A stretch of 5,959 nt of DNA from a virus. Both the position numbers and the translations under genes were made by a program. Under the pieces are notes generated by a model that was not told the DNA's origin, made no database searches, and saw only the letters and a list, made by a program, of their open reading frames with translations. Position 1 is the first letter of the stretch. The number at the start of each line of letters is the position of its first letter. This document shows positions 1 through 5,959 of this stretch, piece by piece. The stretch spans positions 1-5,959 of IMG/VR virus record IMGVR_UViG_3300045988_009917; one strand, given 5' to 3'.

Positions 1-95
1 ATAATCAGTAGCAATTGCATCAGTATTAAGAGAATTAATATAATCAGCAATAGACTGAGATGTAGAATAAGGCATATCACCATTCAAAAAAAAAT
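1..95. repeat. Terminal direct repeat, copy 1. It is an assembly overlap of a circular genome, not a biological repeat.
   Basis: 1..95 (ataatcagtagcaattgcatcag...cattcaaaaaaaaat) is identical base for base to 5865..5959. The capsid reading frame runs through the junction in frame. Confidence 0.97.
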
Positions 96-420
96 TCTGA
101 GTAGGGTCAAGAGAAACAGCATGCTGCGGATTATCATACATCTGCGTCAAGACTGTATTAGACTTATTCCATAGCAAATCATAGGGAACAAAGAAAAAAT
201 CATAATACTCTCTAATACGCGCAAATGCAGCAGTATTAACAGGCTGCGTTCGAGTAAACGCCTTAAGATTAATCTTAAACGTATCACCGGGCAAGACCTC
301 TTTTACCATAACTGGCAACAACTCACCAGCTTTAGCAGTAAAATTTTTCTTAAAAGATAAATCAAATCCATTACGCGAGGGTTTATTGCGGATGGACTTT
401 AGAGACATAATATTTGCCAT
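1..420 (-). CDS. VP1: Major capsid protein VP1 (F-like), N-terminal 140 codons. It continues at 5864..4545 on the circle. 1..95 is the duplicated part.
   Basis: ATG at 420..418. My own translation gives MANIMSLKSIRNKPSRNGFDLSFKKNFTAKAGELLPVMVKEVLPGDTFKINLKAFTRTQPVNTAAFARIREYYDFFFVPYDLLWNKSNTVLTQMYDNPQHAVSLDPTQNFF, followed by LNGDMPYSTS. That joins the listed 4545..5951 ORF, whose first M is really a TTG Leu codon. The motifs SRNGFDLS, GELLPV, EVLPGDTF and EYYDFFFVPY are the conserved N-terminus of microvirus capsid proteins. The joined length is 1740 nt, giving 579 aa. Confidence 0.95.
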   Translation of the reverse strand, partial: MANIMSLKSIRNKPSRNGFDLSFKKNFTAKAGELLPVMVKEVLPGDTFKINLKAFTRTQPVNTAAFARIREYYDFFFVPYDLLWNKSNTVLTQMYDNPQHAVSLDPTQNFFLNGDMPYSTSQSIADYINSLNTDAIATDY

Positions 421-445
421 AACATCAAAAAAATTAAATTAAACA

Positions 446-1945
446 TTATTCGTCGACGAAAATTTTATTCAAATCATTTAGTTTCTTATGTTTAATACGA
501 TCAGAAAACAACTTACTTATCTGTATATCATACAATCTATATACAGGAGTCTTCTTATAAACCAAAGAACTAAAATAAACATTATCATAAAAAAATGGAT
601 AATAACTATTTTCCCAAGCATCAGACATTAAATCAAGGTCACCAACCAAATCACTCGCATAGAATAATTGCTGATTCTCAAAGAACGTCTTCAAGTGCAT
701 ATAATCCAAACGGGAATAAAATTCTTCAATAAGCTTCAACTTTCGTCTCTGCTCCGACAAGGTAGGTCTATCACACACATAGTATAAAAAGTGTTTCGAA
801 AGAAGAAGTTCCGTATAAATACGATGAACATAACGACACATCTCAATACTATCAAGAGAATAGTTAACCATTTCAGGCTCAAAAAAATACTGTGCAAGCT
901 GAAACAAATTCGATTGGTCAGAAACCTCACCGAATATATCCAAGCAATAAGTATCTCTCTTATTATGAAAGTAGTAAATATAACCAACTATTTCCTGCGC
1001 GAGCGAGAACGTCGTTTCGGCGGACGGGAATAGGCGCCTTGCTGTATCATATATTCCATAAGAGTAAGCACGTTCACGTGAAGATTTATTAGCAAATCCT
1101 TTACATTTGGGGAAGAAGTAAGCGTAAGCCGACCGCCATACATCAAATTCCTTATAGCGTCCATTGATAACGATGCTTCTATTAATAAATCGCTCAGGGG
1201 TAAGCGTGTATACTTTTTCTCGTTCACCTTGCAAAAAGCCTTGACCCAGCTTTTGAGAATGAACGCAGAATGGACAGAGGGTAGGTAATGTAAGAACTTT
1301 GGGTACAAGCACACTGCTATTAACATAGCCCGCAACGTACGATGAACACTTACCTTTGGATAGCTGACAGTCGACACGACCATAGGACCAAGCCTCAGAT
1401 ACAGCCGCTGAACATACTTGTAGGACTTCATCTGATTGGAGGAATAATAAGATATGATAATGCGGGCGGAAGTGTACAGGTCCGTATTCGCCAATGGCAA
1501 AATAACGCACTTTTTCTTTGGGAAATCTCTTTGCAACATAATATCGTAAACGTTTAAAAAATAATTGTAAATCAAACTTTCTCAAATAAGGAAGATAACC
1601 AAATAAATGAAATTTGTCTTGTAAACGTTCAATCTCTTCTATAGACAAATCAGCCTCACCAAGATACTCACCAGTCTCAACATCTACGAGGTCATGTCCA
1701 TAAGGTCTTTCCATAGAGTCAACAAATTGAGCACGAGGAATGAAGCGGTTTGCATAAGTAAGTGTAATAAACAACACATGTTTAGATAAATAACTTTCCA
1801 AATCACACTGAAAAGCATATCGGGAATTTTTAGCCAAAATACAAGCCTTACAATGTCCACAGGGGACAGTCATAGCTTCATTTGTATAAGGATTAACAAT
1901 ACGTTGAGGGTTCAGACACTTGCAAAAGGGATTGAACAACGACAT
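446..1945 (-). CDS. VP4: Rolling-circle replication initiator protein VP4 (phiX174 gene A-like HUH endonuclease), 499 aa from ATG 1945. The track ORF starts 2 codons earlier, at GTG 1951.
   Basis: Three Rep motifs are present: LFITLTY (motif 1), GPVHFRPHYHILLF (HUH motif 2) and SSYVAGYVNSS (the paired catalytic tyrosines, compare YVAKYVNK in phiX174 A). There is also an N-terminal Cys cluster, CKC...VPCGHCKAC. Stop is TAA at 446..448. Confidence 0.95.
   Translation of the reverse strand: MSLFNPFCKCLNPQRIVNPYTNEAMTVPCGHCKACILAKNSRYAFQCDLESYLSKHVLFITLTYANRFIPRAQFVDSMERPYGHDLVDVETGEYLGEADLSIEEIERLQDKFHLFGYLPYLRKFDLQLFFKRLRYYVAKRFPKEKVRYFAIGEYGPVHFRPHYHILLFLQSDEVLQVCSAAVSEAWSYGRVDCQLSKGKCSSYVAGYVNSSVLVPKVLTLPTLCPFCVHSQKLGQGFLQGEREKVYTLTPERFINRSIVINGRYKEFDVWRSAYAYFFPKCKGFANKSSRERAYSYGIYDTARRLFPSAETTFSLAQEIVGYIYYFHNKRDTYCLDIFGEVSDQSNLFQLAQYFFEPEMVNYSLDSIEMCRYVHRIYTELLLSKHFLYYVCDRPTLSEQRRKLKLIEEFYSRLDYMHLKTFFENQQLFYASDLVGDLDLMSDAWENSYYPFFYDNVYFSSLVYKKTPVYRLYDIQISKLFSDRIKHKKLNDLNKIFVDE
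988..1539 (-). CDS. Candidate overlapping (overprinted) ORF in the +1 frame inside rep. It is 183 aa from ATG 1539, or 195 aa from TTG 1575, with an Arg/Ser-rich basic C-terminus.
   Basis: See the finding for details. The +1 frame has 1 stop in 281 codons here, against 6 stops in each flanking ~100-125 codons. The product ends ...QQGAYSRPPKRRSRSRRK. I recognise no homology. Confidence 0.3.
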   Translation of the reverse strand: MLQRDFPKKKCVILPLANTDLYTSARIIISYYSSNQMKSYKYVQRLYLRLGPMVVSTVSYPKVSVHRTLRAMLIAVCLYPKFLHYLPSVHSAFILKSWVKAFCKVNEKKYTRLPLSDLLIEASLSMDAIRNLMYGGRLTLTSSPNVKDLLINLHVNVLTLMEYMIQQGAYSRPPKRRSRSRRK

Positions 1946-1947
1946 AA

Positions 1948-2142
1948 TCACTTATAATTTAAATCAACAGTAGTAGAATCAACAGAAGTAGCCTGTGATT
2001 GCTCAGTAGACTGATTACTATTAGTATTGTTCTTACTAACACTCATACTCATAGTGCATGAAACACAGAGCCAAACAGCTGCAATAGCTACAACCGCTTT
2101 GACTACAATCTCAATTGTTTTATAAATCTTTTCTTTGTCCAT
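1948..2142 (-). CDS. Small membrane-anchored or lipoprotein-like protein, 64 aa, function unknown (lysis or exclusion candidate).
   Basis: ATG at 2142 and TGA at 1948..1950, only 2 nt before the rep ATG. The sequence MDKEKIYKTIEIVVKAVVAIAAVWLCVSC-TMSMSVSKNNTNSNQSTEQSQATSVDSTTVDLNYK has a charged N-terminus, one hydrophobic helix ending in Cys residues, and a polar S/T/N/Q tail. A Bacteroides-type -7 box lies 24 nt upstream. Confidence 0.6.
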   Translation of the reverse strand: MDKEKIYKTIEIVVKAVVAIAAVWLCVSCTMSMSVSKNNTNSNQSTEQSQATSVDSTTVDLNYK

Positions 2143-2165
2143 AACAATAATAATTAATTACGACA

Positions 2166-2173
2166 CAAATATA
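2166..2173 (-). promoter_or_regulatory. Candidate Bacteroidetes-type -7 promoter element TAnnTTTG (TATATTTG on the minus strand).
   Basis: Plus-strand caaatata at 2166..2173 reads TATATTTG on the coding strand. It ends 23 nt upstream of the ATG at 2142. It was the only perfect TAnnTTTG I found in the intergenic regions. The -33 TTTG is not perfect. Confidence 0.35.
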
Positions 2174-2240
2174 ATCATAAAAATAAATTCTACAATAGCA
2201 TAAACATATTAATATAAAATATTAACAGATGCAATATTGT

Positions 2241-2269
2241 ATTTAACATAAAAATACATTAAAAACGTA
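2241..2269 (-). promoter_or_regulatory. dif-like XerC/XerD recombination site (candidate attP).
   Basis: The minus strand reads TACGTTTTTAA TGTATTT TTATGTTAAAT. The 11-nt right arm is identical to the XerD arm of E. coli dif (GGTGCGCATAA TGTATA TTATGTTAAAT). The octamer TAATGTAT spanning the XerC-arm end and the central region is also identical. The central region is 1 nt longer and the rest of the XerC arm is degenerate. Confidence 0.55.
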
Positions 2270-2459
2270 ATATTCGATAAGTAATGTGATACAAACCGTC
2301 AACATAGGCAATAATAAGCTGCATAATGGGAAAACCATTCAATAAAATATATAATCCGTCAAACTGATATAACCGCACAACAGATAGGGAAGACAAGAAA
2401 TCAAATATTTCCATTAAGTCATGAAAGGGAATAGGACACCATTGTATAGAGTAATTCAT
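2259..2459 (-). CDS. Hypothetical 66-aa ORF in the AT-rich region (doubtful).
   Basis: ATG at 2459 and TAA at 2259. The product is hydrophobic. An internal DGLY motif occurs twice (FDGLYI and VDGLYH), encoded with synonymous differences (GGA TTA versus GGT TTG). I recognise no family. An ORF of this length is only weakly significant on a T-rich strand. Confidence 0.3.
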   Translation of the reverse strand: MNYSIQWCPIPFHDLMEIFDFLSSLSVVRLYQFDGLYILLNGFPIMQLIIAYVDGLYHITYRILRF

Positions 2460-2500
2460 AATGCAAAAATTTACATCCTGTCATTTTTCGTATAATAGGA

Positions 2501-2548
2501 CAAGAAAAGAAGACAGCCGAAAAATTCATTAATCGGCTGCCCTTCGGG
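2501..2548 (-). terminator. Candidate intrinsic terminator downstream of VP2.
   Basis: The coding strand reads CCCGAAGGG CAGCCGA-UUAAUGAAUUUU-UCGGCUG UCUUCUUUUCUUG. The 7-bp stem pairs 2514..2520 with 2533..2539, has 5 GC pairs and can extend by G-U/G-C pairs. A U-rich tract follows it and a CCC-GAA-GGG mini-hairpin (2540..2548) precedes it. The 12-nt loop is large for a classical terminator. Confidence 0.35.
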
Positions 2549-2631
2549 AAAATGACTAAGGTTTCACTTACGATTAAGATAACGTATAACAGCATTAACC
2601 AATCGAAAAAATAAAATAAGAAACGGAATAG

Positions 2632-2649
2632 ATAATAATAATAATAATA
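2632..2649. repeat. Trinucleotide microsatellite (ATA)6.
   Basis: ataataataataataata read directly at 2632..2649, 49 nt downstream of the VP2 stop on the coding strand. Confidence 0.9.
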
Positions 2650-2697
2650 TCCACATAATAACAAAAATCAATATTATAATGTAAATATAATAAAATA

Positions 2698-3864
2698 TTA
2701 CTCAATACCAGAGGGAACGCCTATAGATTGTAAAAAACGAGCGCCAGTTTTAAAGATACCAATTTTATCCGTATTATACAGAGAATCAAAGATAGATTCC
2801 TTAATAAGACGGACACGATCCTTATAAGTTTCAGACTGGAATTGATTCTCCGTTTGACGAGAAGTATTTTCTAACTGTGCATTAACAGTATTAGCGCGCT
2901 CAGTCCAATATTGCTGATTAGTAAGAGAAGTACGAGCAACAGTTTCAGCAAGTTTCTCAATCTCATGCTGAGCTTGTTTTTCAGTAAGATCCTTCTGTGA
3001 ATACTTCAATGCAATATCAGCAACAGATAAAGACAACTGCATTTTTTGTTCATACGGCAAAAATTTAAGTTGCTGCTCACGCAACAAATTCTCAGTAACA
3101 GCAAGCTTTGTTTGAGCCTGTATTTGACGAACATTCTCATTATTAACAGCAATCTGCGATGCAGAAAGGTCTTTCTGAATAGAAGAGAGAACACGCTGTA
3201 TAGCTACACGTTCATCATCATTCTTAGCATCATTATAAGACTTATACAATTCAGCAATAGCCTTACTTGCAATATACTTACCTTCAATACGCAAGTTGCG
3301 GGCTTGAGCATCCTGAAAATTACGCTGTGAACCGGTCATAATAGTATCAATCGCGTGTCCAAGTCCTTGCATAACACCTGAATAATCAGCAGAATAAGGA
3401 GTAGCGGTAGGAGGTTGAACACCTTGTGCACTGGGAGAACCAGCAGACGGGACAGAACCTTGTGTTCCTGATACAGAACCAGCAACACCAGCAGAACCGC
3501 CATTCATCATCATATAGGGATTCAAACCAGCAGCTTCCAAACGTTCACGTTGAGCAGACGGATCATTGTATTCATTCGTCTTATTCCACATTTCAGTCTG
3601 ATAAGCCTTATTATCTTCATACAACTTCCAAGCATTCGCCTTTTGGTCATCATAGAATTTCCACTGGTCACCTAATTGTGTCTGATACATTTCCTTATTA
3701 TAAGCAATTTGCTTATCAAACATTTTCTCGTTAAAGGCATTGTTCATTTGAGCAATTTCCTTATTGGCTTTATTCTGCATAGCACTAGTAGAGGCACCAC
3801 CGATAAGGGAAGTACCTGCACCAATTGCAGAACCGACAAGACCAGTCATAGCAGCAGCACCCAT
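2698..3864 (-). CDS. VP2: VP2 minor capsid / DNA pilot protein (phiX174 H-like), 388 aa.
   Basis: ATG at 3864 and TAA at 2698..2700. The Gly/Ala-rich hydrophobic N-terminus is MGAAAMTGLVGSAIGAGTSLIGGA. It is followed by the N/Q/K/E-rich segment NKEIAQMNNAFNEKMFDKQIAYNKEMY, then the conserved RERLEAAGLNPYMM motif, and then a long coiled-coil-like Q/E/K-rich C-terminal half. All of this is typical of microvirus pilot proteins. Confidence 0.9.
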   Translation of the reverse strand: MGAAAMTGLVGSAIGAGTSLIGGASTSAMQNKANKEIAQMNNAFNEKMFDKQIAYNKEMYQTQLGDQWKFYDDQKANAWKLYEDNKAYQTEMWNKTNEYNDPSAQRERLEAAGLNPYMMMNGGSAGVAGSVSGTQGSVPSAGSPSAQGVQPPTATPYSADYSGVMQGLGHAIDTIMTGSQRNFQDAQARNLRIEGKYIASKAIAELYKSYNDAKNDDERVAIQRVLSSIQKDLSASQIAVNNENVRQIQAQTKLAVTENLLREQQLKFLPYEQKMQLSLSVADIALKYSQKDLTEKQAQHEIEKLAETVARTSLTNQQYWTERANTVNAQLENTSRQTENQFQSETYKDRVRLIKESIFDSLYNTDKIGIFKTGARFLQSIGVPSGIE

Positions 3865-3920
3865 AATTCAATATTTTTATAATTACACATAACTTAATAT
3901 TTAAAAGGTATTATTTCATA

Positions 3921-3960
3921 GGGCATAGCCCTGGAGCCCCCCCTTAAAAGGGGACCCCCC
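3921..3960 (-). other. G/C-tract structured island (hairpins, and a possible G-quadruplex on the viral strand).
   Basis: The viral strand reads GGGGGG T CCCC TTTTAA GGGGGGG CTCCA GGGC TAT GCCC. Two hairpins are possible: CCCC/GGGG (3940..3943 with 3950..3953) and GGGC/GCCC (3921..3924 with 3928..3931). The C7 and C6 runs are the only homopolymer C runs of 5 or more that I noticed in the window. Confidence 0.5.
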
Positions 3961-3978
3961 AGTTAAGGTTCAGGTTAA

Positions 3979-4019
3979 AAAATAAAAGGGGAAACTGCTC
4001 GCAGGCTCTTTTTTATTTT
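3979..4019 (-). terminator. Candidate terminator-like inverted repeat downstream of the VP3-like gene.
   Basis: aaaataaaa (3979..3987) is the perfect reverse complement of ttttatttt (4011..4019). Together they enclose the GC-containing core ggggaaactgctcgcaggctctt. On the coding strand the structure ends in CCCCUUUUAUUUUUU. The A-tract and T-tract arms resemble a bidirectional intrinsic terminator. Confidence 0.3.
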
Positions 4020-4050
4020 AAAACTGAAGACCATAACTAAGGGGAAATAA

Positions 4051-4527
4051 TTATTCAGCAACAGTAGTAGCAGAATTATCAGTAGCAACATTAGCGGCAG
4101 AATTATCAGCAGCAGTAGCAGCAGCAGCAGCAGCAATCATTGCATCCTGAGAGCTCATAAGATACTGAGACCAAGACATTAACTCACTCGGGGTTTGAAT
4201 AAATCTCGATTTAACAAATGAGCACAACTGAGCATCAGTCATTCTTTTACGCAAATCTGACATTTTAGGCTCAGAAACAGACAGATTGTCAAAATACTCA
4301 ACAAGTTGTGCACGAGTAAGCTTATCCAATCGATGCTGATTAAACAGCATATGAATATCAGAAGTAATACGAATAGACTTCCTTCCATCACACTCTATCT
4401 CTTGAAACATAAAATCATGAAGAGGAGAGGGTTCTACAAATTCACTGATTGACAATACGGAAGAATTAACATTATTAGATTGAGAATTATCTACATAAGG
4501 CTCAACACGTCGTTTTGTACACCACAT
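4051..4527 (-). CDS. 158-aa protein between VP1 and VP2. It is a putative internal scaffolding (VP3-like) protein, and the function is assigned by position only.
   Basis: ATG at 4527, 17 nt after the VP1 stop, and TAA at 4051..4053. The composition is acidic and polar with an Ala-rich repetitive tail, MIAAAAAATAADNSAANVATDNSATTVAE. Size and synteny match the VP3 slot of non-phiX microviruses. I cannot confirm homology. Confidence 0.75.
   Translation of the reverse strand: MWCTKRRVEPYVDNSQSNNVNSSVLSISEFVEPSPLHDFMFQEIECDGRKSIRITSDIHMLFNQHRLDKLTRAQLVEYFDNLSVSEPKMSDLRKRMTDAQLCSFVKSRFIQTPSELMSWSQYLMSSQDAMIAAAAAATAADNSAANVATDNSATTVAE
4108..4134 (-). repeat. In-frame trinucleotide repeat (GCT)6 ACT (GCT)2, encoding AAAAAATAA in the VP3-like tail.
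   Basis: Read directly: the plus strand is agc agc agt agc agc agc agc agc agc. In addition, the 13-nt direct repeat gcagaattatcag occurs at 4070..4082 and 4097..4109 (period 27 nt) and encodes the duplicated (T/A)DNSA motif. Confidence 0.9.
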
Positions 4528-4544
4528 AATAAATAAGTTTTAAG

Positions 4545-5959
4545 TTAATAAGGTAAACCATCAGTATCAAGATTACGGACAGCTTTAATATCAAAAAATG
4601 AACTACACAAAAACTGGTCTGTACTAATATCACTATCAGCTTTAACCGCAAAAATAGGATCAAGGCAATTAGGATTAACTTTAAAAAAAGTAAAATTCAT
4701 AGGAGAAACAGACGGAACAGGCTCAGACGGTTCAACAGGAGGTGCACCAGCAGGAAGTGTAACCTGATTCTTAACAGATTCATTACTATAAGATATTACC
4801 CAAGAATTCAATGTACGTTTAAAACCACCAACTGACTGGTCTACTGATGTTTTATAATCAATATAACGAGGTACATAACCAAGAACCAATCCAGAAGCAT
4901 TAGCAACCGAAAGTAATGGGTTCATAAGCTGTACCAGCGGCACAGACTGCATACCTACTCGGTCAAATTCAGGGATAGCATAATCAGTTGAGTTCACTTT
5001 CAAAAATGCGGGGTCAAGCATATCAGTAGTATAATCGAGCAGAGGAAGACAATGATAAACACACATAATCAAGCCGTAGCGACCATTACTGTTAAAATTA
5101 ATCTCACCATTCGCAACACCAACACCTTTACCAGCAATATCAGCAGCAGCACTTCCTGTAATATTAGTATTAACAACTTCGTTAATATCAATAGAAGAAG
5201 AGACACCACCAAGATAGGTACATAATTCAGAAAAACCGTCACCGACAGAAACACCCCAATGTCTTTCTAACTGATCTTTATAATCCTTATTACCTGACTG
5301 AGCAATTTCTTTCCATTTCTGTAGAAACTCAGCTTGACGAAGAGCCAATATAGATAAATCACCAACTGTATCAAACGCAGGAAAGCTCTTAGTAGCTGTA
5401 CCACTCGCAGTAGTAGGAGAAGTTCCAACAGTAGAAAAATTAGTGAGAGTAAGTTTACCAGTTACATTCGGAGTAATCGAAGCAACAGCAGCTTCTCCAT
5501 ATTGCTGATGTGGAAGAACACCATGAAACAAATCTTTCTGCCAATTGCAATAACGAAGATCAAACATATTATAAGAATGAATAAATGATTCATTGTTATA
5601 AAAATTAGTCAAATACATATTCTGACCGTCCAAATAATCAACATTAAATGTAGAGGGCGAAATTCGCTCCCATTGACTATCACGATAAAAATCAGAATAA
5701 ATTTTTTGATAAGCCAACAAACCAAACAAATTATGATTCAAATCAGCCATTAGAGGAGTAGAACGCCAACTATTAGTCAAAAACGACTCATAATTACCAT
5801 AACCAAGATATTCAAGAAGTTTAACAGAACAAACAGCACGAGAATAACCCATATAATTACTCGAATAATCAGTAGCAATTGCATCAGTATTAAGAGAATT
5901 AATATAATCAGCAATAGACTGAGATGTAGAATAAGGCATATCACCATTCAAAAAAAAAT
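4545..5959 (-). CDS. VP1: Major capsid protein VP1 (F-like), C-terminal part. It is open at the window edge and upstream codons are at 420..96.
   Basis: The ORF is 468+ aa, ends in TAA at 4545..4547 and stays open to the window end. It is in frame with the 420..1 segment across the 95-nt overlap. Confidence 0.95.
   Translation of the reverse strand, partial: FFLNGDMPYSTSQSIADYINSLNTDAIATDYSSNYMGYSRAVCSVKLLEYLGYGNYESFLTNSWRSTPLMADLNHNLFGLLAYQKIYSDFYRDSQWERISPSTFNVDYLDGQNMYLTNFYNNESFIHSYNMFDLRYCNWQKDLFHGVLPHQQYGEAAVASITPNVTGKLTLTNFSTVGTSPTTASGTATKSFPAFDTVGDLSILALRQAEFLQKWKEIAQSGNKDYKDQLERHWGVSVGDGFSELCTYLGGVSSSIDINEVVNTNITGSAAADIAGKGVGVANGEINFNSNGRYGLIMCVYHCLPLLDYTTDMLDPAFLKVNSTDYAIPEFDRVGMQSVPLVQLMNPLLSVANASGLVLGYVPRYIDYKTSVDQSVGGFKRTLNSWVISYSNESVKNQVTLPAGAPPVEPSEPVPSVSPMNFTFFKVNPNCLDPIFAVKADSDISTDQFLCSSFFDIKAVRNLDTDGLPY
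5865..5959. repeat. Terminal direct repeat, copy 2 (duplicate of 1..95).
   Basis: Exact 95/95 identity to 1..95, read directly from the sequence. Confidence 0.97.

Follow-up and report, generated by a model that had tools for sequence, protein, structure and literature searches.

Does the replication gene of the microvirus in IMG/VR record IMGVR_UViG_3300045988_009917 encode one protein or two? The window analysed here is the whole 5,959-nucleotide stretch (positions 1 to 5,959 of that record), a microvirus genome with all of its genes on the minus strand. Its replication gene, rep (VP4; 446..1951, minus strand), is read as 501 codons from GTG 1951 and was assigned from the list of open reading frames (ORFs), PHROG 942 and Pfam PF23343. 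An initial annotation of the window had pointed to a long stretch with few stop codons in the frame shifted one nucleotide downstream of the Rep frame (+1), and had proposed an embedded gene there. We find it very probable, from sequence comparisons, that 988..1539 on the minus strand is a genuine second protein-coding gene, hereafter alt, which overprints the catalytic core of rep in the +1 frame and crosses its HUH and Tyr motifs. This candidate gene runs from ATG 1539..1537 to TAG 990..988 and specifies 183 amino acids over Rep codons 138-321. Support for the embedded gene comes from the relatives of this genome, from a trough in synonymous variation, from the conservation of its ATG and stop, and from randomisations of rep.

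The open +1 frame and its boundaries

The +1 stops of rep fall at Rep codons 1, 13, 27, 89, 104 and 123, then at 321, and then at 405, 420, 441, 478, 491 and 494, so that no stop is found for 197 codons (124-320). The initial annotation had counted these stops correctly: six up to the TGA at 1582..1584 (minus), which bounds the open stretch upstream in this genome, the lone TAG at 988..990, and then the TGA at 736..738 (minus) that ends a second open stretch, with five more beyond. Two ORFs are listed in this frame, 988..1575 (195 amino acids from a TTG) and 736..987 (83 amino acids). Also correct was the remark that all 16 NTA codons among Rep codons 124-320 precede a codon beginning with a pyrimidine; in the flanks 6 of 14 precede a purine (Fisher P = 0.005; chance of 16 out of 16, 3e-5). 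Its estimate that about 15 stops should be expected in the centre does follow from the density in the flanks, but it is too high because the Rep sequence there offers half as many sites with Leu, Ile or Val followed by a purine. This genome has 14 such sites at which a change silent in Rep would put a stop into alt.

A better expectation was obtained from 20,000 synonymous-codon shuffles within rep, which keep the Rep protein and its codon usage. The gene has 13 stops in +1 compared with a shuffle mean of 21.7 (P = 0.0014). An open run of at least 197 codons appeared in 0.15% of the shuffles (P = 0.0015), and at most one stop in 281 codons was similarly infrequent (P = 0.0006). For codons 124-320 the shuffles predict 5.4 stops and none is observed (P = 0.0004-0.0016). 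Long open runs, whose frequent appearance in Rep-preserving randomisations the initial annotation had named as grounds for abandoning the idea, were therefore rare. Stop avoidance is confined to +1, as the +2 frame of rep contains 62 stops, and in the other genes of the window no +1 run exceeds 65 codons. After correction for about ten gene-frame combinations that could have been inspected, the single-genome P value is approximately 0.01-0.02. Taken alone, the evidence from this genome is thus suggestive, not decisive.

The relatives were more informative. We placed the +1 stops of 38 aligned rep genes on the codon numbering of the window, and compared 36 relatives with long Rep proteins, namely 27 phage or metagenome representatives and 9 genomic or prophage copies in Bacteroidota. 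The depletion of +1 stops that the initial annotation suggested looking for was found at the same position in all 36, including the cultured Bacteroides phage phiHBP1 and prophages of Bacteroides, Prevotella, Xylanibacter and Chitinophaga. In the 27 representatives, which range from 96% to 25% Rep identity, the longest +1 ORF (171-293 codons) is located in the same place. Codons 124-320 lack a +1 stop in every aligned sequence down to 59% Rep identity, and the three most divergent aligned sequences carry one stop each near an end of the stretch (codons 317, 303 and 132 in L006, L007 and L008, respectively). Seventeen further representatives at 42-25% identity, phiHBP1 among them, again have their longest +1 ORF (171-283 codons) there, spanning about window codons 133-143 to 310-325; in some distant representatives the open frame begins further upstream. 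The counterpart of alt in phiHBP1 (PV598014.1) is complement(1214..1741) and specifies 175 amino acids. The nine Bacteroidota copies have no +1 stop where 3-5.6 would be expected. Shuffle P values for individual genomes were mostly 0.001-0.05. In four sequences (L044, L046, L049 and P0027) at least about 29 codons have been inserted beyond the HUH position; these inserts, the longest of which is in L049, are open in +1.

Microviruses with short Rep proteins served as a control. Three gokushovirus-type genomes, whose Reps of 293-306 amino acids contain the same HUH and Tyr motifs, have about as many +1 stops over the homologous region as the shuffles predict. The same holds for about 17 prophages of short-Rep microviruses from other phyla, which also contain these motifs. 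These counts show the candidate ORF to be absent from short-Rep microviruses. They also indicate that conservation of the motifs does not force the frame open, and that the shuffle null is calibrated.

Both ends of the ORF are conserved. The start, ATG 1537..1539 (minus), lies within Rep TAT-G (Tyr138-Val139) and is kept in all 34 relatives aligned without gaps. In 23 of 23 divergent genomes an ATG is found 11-44 (mostly 11-23) codons upstream of the HUH position. When 1.84 billion representatives were searched with the profile, the majority of distant family members had their first residue one place ahead of profile position 9. In distant lineages the ATG comes 3-6 codons after a +1 stop, has A-rich surroundings and begins a conserved 'M-K-K-[FYL]-V' N-terminus; this bounding stop, at codons 132-143, is nearer to the ATG than in the present genome. 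Of the two starts first proposed, ATG 1539, giving 183 amino acids, is the conserved one. TTG 1575 was rejected for lack of conservation and because +1 stops at codons 132-143 separate it from the ATG in distant relatives. The terminal TAG (988..990, minus), within Rep ATA-G (Ile321-Val322), is kept in 37 of 38 aligned sequences, and the ORF of distant relatives terminates at window codons 310-325. The exception is bajarodmic virus 324 (L060, PQ006433.1), in which it continues to about window codon 412 (236 codons) as a lineage-specific C-terminal extension.

The frame stays open in this genome for another 83 codons after the TAG, as first noted, but this second stretch (736..987, minus) lies outside the embedded gene and is not kept in relatives. 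Their stops within it are found at Rep codons 322, 325, 332, 337, 349, 361, 366, 383 and 401, and the synonymous rate over it is 1.37 times expectation, which together rule out read-through or extension into this region. Because the stops of relatives are scattered over codons 322-405, we regard 736..987 as open by chance and not part of the gene.

Between the conserved ends, the overlap includes the Rep HUH motif, His164-Tyr-His166 (1454..1462, minus), whose bases also encode the conserved 'RIIISYY' strand predicted for alt, and the catalytic Tyr motif YVAGY at codons 205-209 (1325..1339, minus), whose Y205 and Y209 are invariant in 55 Reps. The ORF therefore sits over the most conserved part of Rep, not over its variable C-terminus.

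Translation of alt would proceed by independent internal initiation at ATG 1539 on an mRNA containing rep. This ATG has an A/U-rich context, of the kind expected for starts in Bacteroidota. The +1 frame could instead be read exclusively through programmed +1 frameshifting from Rep, giving a trans-frame Rep-alt protein, and sequence databases do contain Rep-to-alt fusions of 316-380 amino acids from several lineages, with the switch often shortly after the HUH motif. We consider this improbable. The junctions vary from case to case and lie at different sites in the chimeric entries (P0001, P0015, P0023, P0029, P0032, P0044 and P0153). One case amounts to a 1-nucleotide assembly indel, as L065 is shifted and the near-identical L064 is intact. 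Gene callers choose the alt frame only where an assembly indel, an N-gap or a contig end interrupts Rep, which accounts for the alt-frame entries and makes their collection a biased one. The fusions could be traced to assembly indels, N-gaps and truncations, and were discarded as evidence for frameshifting. In addition, a conserved ATG directly follows a +1 stop in most distant lineages, and no conserved slippery site is known, although no search aimed at one was made. It also follows that truncated 'Rep' entries in databases may be frame-shifted hybrids.

Selection on both frames

If rep has to specify a second protein, its synonymous sites should be constrained. We compared 28 distinct close relatives, with a mean of 14.5% synonymous codon differences, by a pairwise method of our own. 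The ratio of observed to expected synonymous difference was 0.60 in codons 138-320 and 1.17, 1.37 and 1.14 in the three flanking segments (column permutation z = -4.3 for the deficit in the ORF). A scan for the lowest-rate segment, made blind to the ORF, returned codons 136-315, compared with 138-320 for the ORF itself. Of the 364 third-position synonymous variants that are possible inside the ORF, 68 distinct ones occur, compared with 192 of 491 elsewhere in rep (Fisher 8e-11). No variant inside creates a stop; 12 variants outside involve one. The suppression of synonymous variation that the initial annotation had predicted is thus present, with the rate about halved and the trough coinciding with ATG 1539 to TAG 988. 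Within the limits of such comparisons, these results show that Rep synonymous sites are under purifying selection exactly across the embedded ORF.

Codon usage gives a related indication. The frequency of T at the third position of Rep codons drops to 0.34 within the overlap, from 0.53 elsewhere in rep and 0.59 for the other genes, and over 20 genomes it is 0.36 in the overlap versus 0.48 (Wilcoxon 4e-6). Such a drop is a classical signature of a second constraint. Within the overlap the value is slightly higher in the Rep frame (0.34) than in the new frame (0.28), which is consistent with the Rep frame being ancestral by the reasoning of Fiddes and Godson (summarised in PMC8227390). Rep would then be the older protein, and alt would have been born de novo in an ancestor of the long-Rep lineage.

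To examine the amino acid sequence of the +1 frame, we took every pair among 14-20 divergent genomes, scored the two +1 translations by BLOSUM62 along the Rep alignment, and set the scores against those of synonymous shuffles. Similarity over the ORF region had a mean z of 7.4 with whole-gene shuffles and 5.9 with shuffles restricted to the region, which keep regional codon usage; in the latter, z exceeded 2 in 97% of 190 pairs. The +1 translations of the flanks gave z values of about 0.2-0.8, and the +2 frame over the ORF region 2.3-3.6. Identity of the +1 product and of Rep over the same bases was 0.73 and 0.75, 0.53 and 0.54, 0.40 and 0.39, and 0.29 and 0.28, respectively. As judged by these scores, the predicted +1 sequence is shown to be about as conserved as Rep across the long-Rep lineage.

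Several observations weigh against a second gene. In phiX174, a conserved but non-coding ORF lies over a Rep motif (PMC9865509), and conservation of an ORF is by itself no proof of coding. The Leu, Arg and Ser content of the alt product, 32.8%, is within the range reported for non-coding frames (PMC9865509). Its basicity is common to +1 frames generally (+8.6 per 100 amino acids in the flanks and +9.8 in the ORF), and among close relatives replacements in alt are only non-significantly more conservative than those in the flanks (Mann-Whitney P = 0.11). The structural models of alt and Rep discussed below share three strands and one helix in the N-terminal half, so that the alt model could partly echo Rep. 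Finally, the function suggested below draws only on composition, context and the absence of VP5/J-like genes.

Some of these points would fit a non-coding by-product, in which the open +1 frame is a side effect of the conserved HUH/Tyr core of Rep and of T-rich codons. The phiX174 case documents just such a false positive, the Leu, Arg and Ser content is typical of it, and Rep has half the potential +1 stop sites here that it has in the flanks. It does not account, however, for the expected numbers of stops in short-Rep microviruses with the same motifs, or for synonymous diversity halved precisely inside the ORF. Shuffles that preserve Rep reproduce neither the ORF nor the similarity of the +1 protein (z = 6-7), and third-position T is depleted in the overlap, not enriched. 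We therefore regard this explanation as largely refuted and highly improbable. A nucleic-acid element that constrains rep and leaves the open frame incidental (an origin, a packaging signal, internal promoters, or structure in single-stranded DNA (ssDNA) or mRNA over about 550 nucleotides) is scarcely credible: synonymous constraint by itself does not name its cause, the phiX174 origin does lie inside gene A, and +2 similarity is raised as well (z = 2.3-3.6), but the +1 z is about twice the +2 z, stops are avoided in +1 alone (62 in +2), start and stop codon are both conserved, the trough ends where the ORF does, known origins span tens of bases, not 550, and the constraint persists at 25-30% Rep identity, where nucleotides can no longer be aligned.

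The predicted alt product and its possible role

The overprinted gene would encode a protein of 183 amino acids and 21 kDa with an isoelectric point of 10.3 (30 Lys and Arg versus 8 Asp and Glu), including the peptides LPLSDLLIEASLSMDAIR and DLLINLHVNVLTLMEYMIQQGAYSR. Its basic C-terminal tail, SRPPKRRSRSRRK (991..1029, minus), is predicted to be disordered, with a predicted local distance difference test (pLDDT) score below 50 at residues 176-183. It is encoded in a patch rich in G+C, correctly reported earlier (997..1036, 68% compared with 36% for the window). Unlike the ATG, the tail is restricted to part of the lineage: it is retained only at about 70% Rep identity or more, and its net charge is at least +3 in about one third of the alt family. 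It is thus a weak basis for the J-, VP5- or B-like role proposed from it, all the more so as +1 frames are basic anyway and no similarity to B, J or VP5 was found.

No transmembrane segment is predicted in the alt product (Kyte-Doolittle maximum of 1.33 in a 19-residue window), and it has no match in Pfam, PHROGs, NCBIfam or PDB sequences. Alignment with gokushovirus VP5 ('DNA binding protein') by hhalign gave a probability of 0.1%. The protein collection contains 29 close homologues, mostly of exactly 183 amino acids, and the profile matches 154 clusters at 50% identity, mostly of 160-200 amino acids; all of them are unnamed.

An AlphaFold2 model of alt, built from a 22-sequence alignment, has a pLDDT of 81 and a predicted template modelling (TM) score of 0.77. 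It begins with a four-stranded sheet, continues with four long helices and a further strand, and has the disordered tail. It is reasonable to infer that the product is a folded, very basic (isoelectric point about 10) alpha/beta protein, with the fold itself provisional. Because the alt alignment inherits the covariation of Rep, we modelled Rep as well (AlphaFold, pLDDT 85). With the two models offset by 137 residues, the N-terminal halves (alt residues 9-85 and Rep residues 146-222) match in the placement of three strands and one helix, so that the same bases specify these elements in both proteins, among them the HUH strand and the helix of the Tyr motif. This coincidence could be true coupling of the folds or an echo of the modelling. 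The C-terminal halves differ, with a helix in one where the other has two strands and a strand where the other has a helix, and for this reason we provisionally take the alt model to be not merely a ghost of the Rep fold.

Foldseek searches with the alt model found no PDB match (best E = 0.28). The one significant match was BFVD A0A858NND1 (E = 3e-4, TM score 0.56), an unnamed protein of 364 amino acids. Its accession belongs to a series with microvirus proteins and it is outside the top 50 structural matches of Rep. It may be a Rep-alt hybrid or an alt homologue.

Known microvirus proteins do not offer a counterpart. A lysis protein of the phiX174 E type was rejected, as alt has no N-terminal transmembrane helix and the ORF occurs as well in relatives with an M15 peptidase gene. 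The internal scaffolding protein B of phiX174 was rejected because there is no Pfam or PHROG match and the overlap covers the HUH and Tyr motifs, not the C-terminal part of rep. DNA-condensing proteins of the J/VP8 type, highly basic and packaged with the DNA, are about 20-40 amino acids long, and alt has 183 and is predicted to contain a folded domain. No sequence or profile similarity links it to gokushovirus VP5 or phiX174 protein C. VP5, C and J/VP8-type proteins resemble alt in being small, basic accessory proteins encoded beside or overlapping rep, but differ in size and have no detectable similarity; the analogy comes from charge and context, and charge is not diagnostic.

The guide to function is then the genomic context. 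The candidate gene is co-encoded with the catalytic core of Rep, is confined to a lineage without recognisable VP5/C- and J-type genes, and is kept in prophages. In Alpavirinae, homologues of these genes are not recognisable, and VP1, VP2 and VP4 are the only proteins recognisable as conserved (PMC3394797). We tentatively propose that alt might be a non-structural, nucleic-acid-binding accessory of ssDNA replication or packaging, although we would put this below an even chance. It would then fill the role of protein C/VP5 or of J-type proteins, for which the lineage has no recognisable genes. Regulation of the temperate life cycle is an equally possible function. Nor does alt replace M15 peptidases, which some genomes encode alongside it.

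Genes nested within other microvirus genes are familiar from phiX174. Its E within D and K across A/C use the +1 frame, as alt does. The closest parallel is gene B, which, like alt, is a same-strand gene nested in another frame of the replication gene of a tiny ssDNA genome. A nested gene of phiX174 is also missed by standard gene callers, as alt is (PMC8227390, PMC9865509). However, B lies over the C-terminal part of A, which is less conserved (PMC9865509), and alt over the catalytic HUH and Tyr motifs. The alt product is longer, is predicted to be folded and has no sequence similarity to B, and it belongs to another lineage with an independent origin. OG63 of the reekeekeeviruses (PMC9865509) is likewise an overprinted gene in a Rep outside Bullavirinae, deduced computationally from conservation and selection; it differs, by its description, in occupying the less conserved C-terminal region of Rep, in very small genomes of an unrelated lineage. 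The conserved non-coding ORF of phiX174 (PMC9865509) resembles alt as an alternative-frame ORF over a conserved Rep domain that is retained among relatives. In alt, moreover, synonymous variation dips over the ORF, the start is conserved, similarity of the +1 protein is frame-specific and far above that of shuffles, and sister lineages with the same motifs lack the ORF. Overprinted proteins are usually disordered (PMC8227390), and the order predicted for alt would depart from this trend.

Genomic setting and significance

In the window, VP1 (Pfam Phage_F), a VP2-like pilot protein and small ORFs accompany rep. Rep has 2504 homologues, mostly of 490-510 amino acids. The real start of rep is probably not GTG 1951 but ATG 1945, which gives 499 amino acids, the same length as the homologues. 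Upstream lies a 64-codon ORF (1948..2142, minus) whose TAA (1950..1948) overlaps GTG 1951 and is 2 nucleotides before ATG 1945. No family match was found for this ORF; it contains a hydrophobic stretch, IEIVVKAVVAIAAVWLCVSC, and could encode a small membrane protein. At the two ends of the window (1..445 and 4545..5959, minus), the VP1 ORF leaves it at 5951, and ATG GCA AAT ATT ATG is found after the rep stop, near 420. For these reasons the window looks like a complete circular genome linearised within VP1.

The closest relatives in GenBank are lemur and tortoise faecal microviruses at 70-72% Rep identity. Metagenomic relatives reach 91-96%, and several lie within bacterial contigs of 20-200 kb. 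Near-identical genomes in bacterial contigs of 20-270 kb, a Bacteroides metagenome-assembled genome included, are integrated prophages (L016, L021, L023, L026, L031, L039-L041 and L067), and the embedded ORF is intact in every one of these integrated copies. Full-length relatives are found in GTDB genomes of Bacteroides, Prevotella, Xylanibacter and Chitinophaga. With a VP4 of about 500 amino acids, VP1 and VP2, no recognisable VP3 or VP5, and relatives in Bacteroidota contigs, the genome has the features of the long-Rep, Bacteroidota-associated (Alpavirinae-type, Family 5) lineage defined in PMC3394797 and PMC9239249. From its gene content and the locations of its relatives, we assign it to this lineage.

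The initial annotation had stated that no such gene was described for this lineage, and this agrees with the searchable literature. The GenBank records of all relatives, phiHBP1 included, have no annotation inside rep. To our knowledge, overprinted microvirus genes have been established experimentally in the phiX174 group only. The global classification of microviruses expressly does not cover overprinted genes (PMC9239249), and Kirchberger et al. state that those outside Bullavirinae are missing from their survey. Nested genes in rep are already known (B in A of phiX174, and OG63, PMC9865509), and the alt family is unrelated to them and belongs to a different lineage.

A broader proposal, to which we would give slightly better than even odds, is that all Alpavirinae-type microviruses carry this unrecognised core gene, born de novo over the HUH/Tyr core of Rep, encoding a well-folded protein of novel fold and co-evolved with Rep codon by codon. 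If true, a core gene of this kind would be at odds with what is usual for overprinted genes, whose products are disordered and which lie on weakly constrained parts of the host gene. The same 550 bases would encode two proteins over active-site motifs, jointly conserved to about 25% identity, which makes the alt/rep overlap a stringent natural test of ideas on dual coding and on the de novo birth of genes. Since phiHBP1 can be grown on Bacteroides fragilis (PMC13064476), the existence of alt is now a testable hypothesis. Recoding rep with 'synonymous' changes would not leave these phages unaffected, and gene callers will go on overlooking alt.

Alpavirinae-type phages are the main ssDNA phages of Bacteroidota in the human gut. 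A lineage-wide alt would thus add a core protein to a dominant group of human-gut phages, and it may supply a function that has seemed to be missing from them, such as switching from replication to packaging, DNA binding or regulation of lysogeny.

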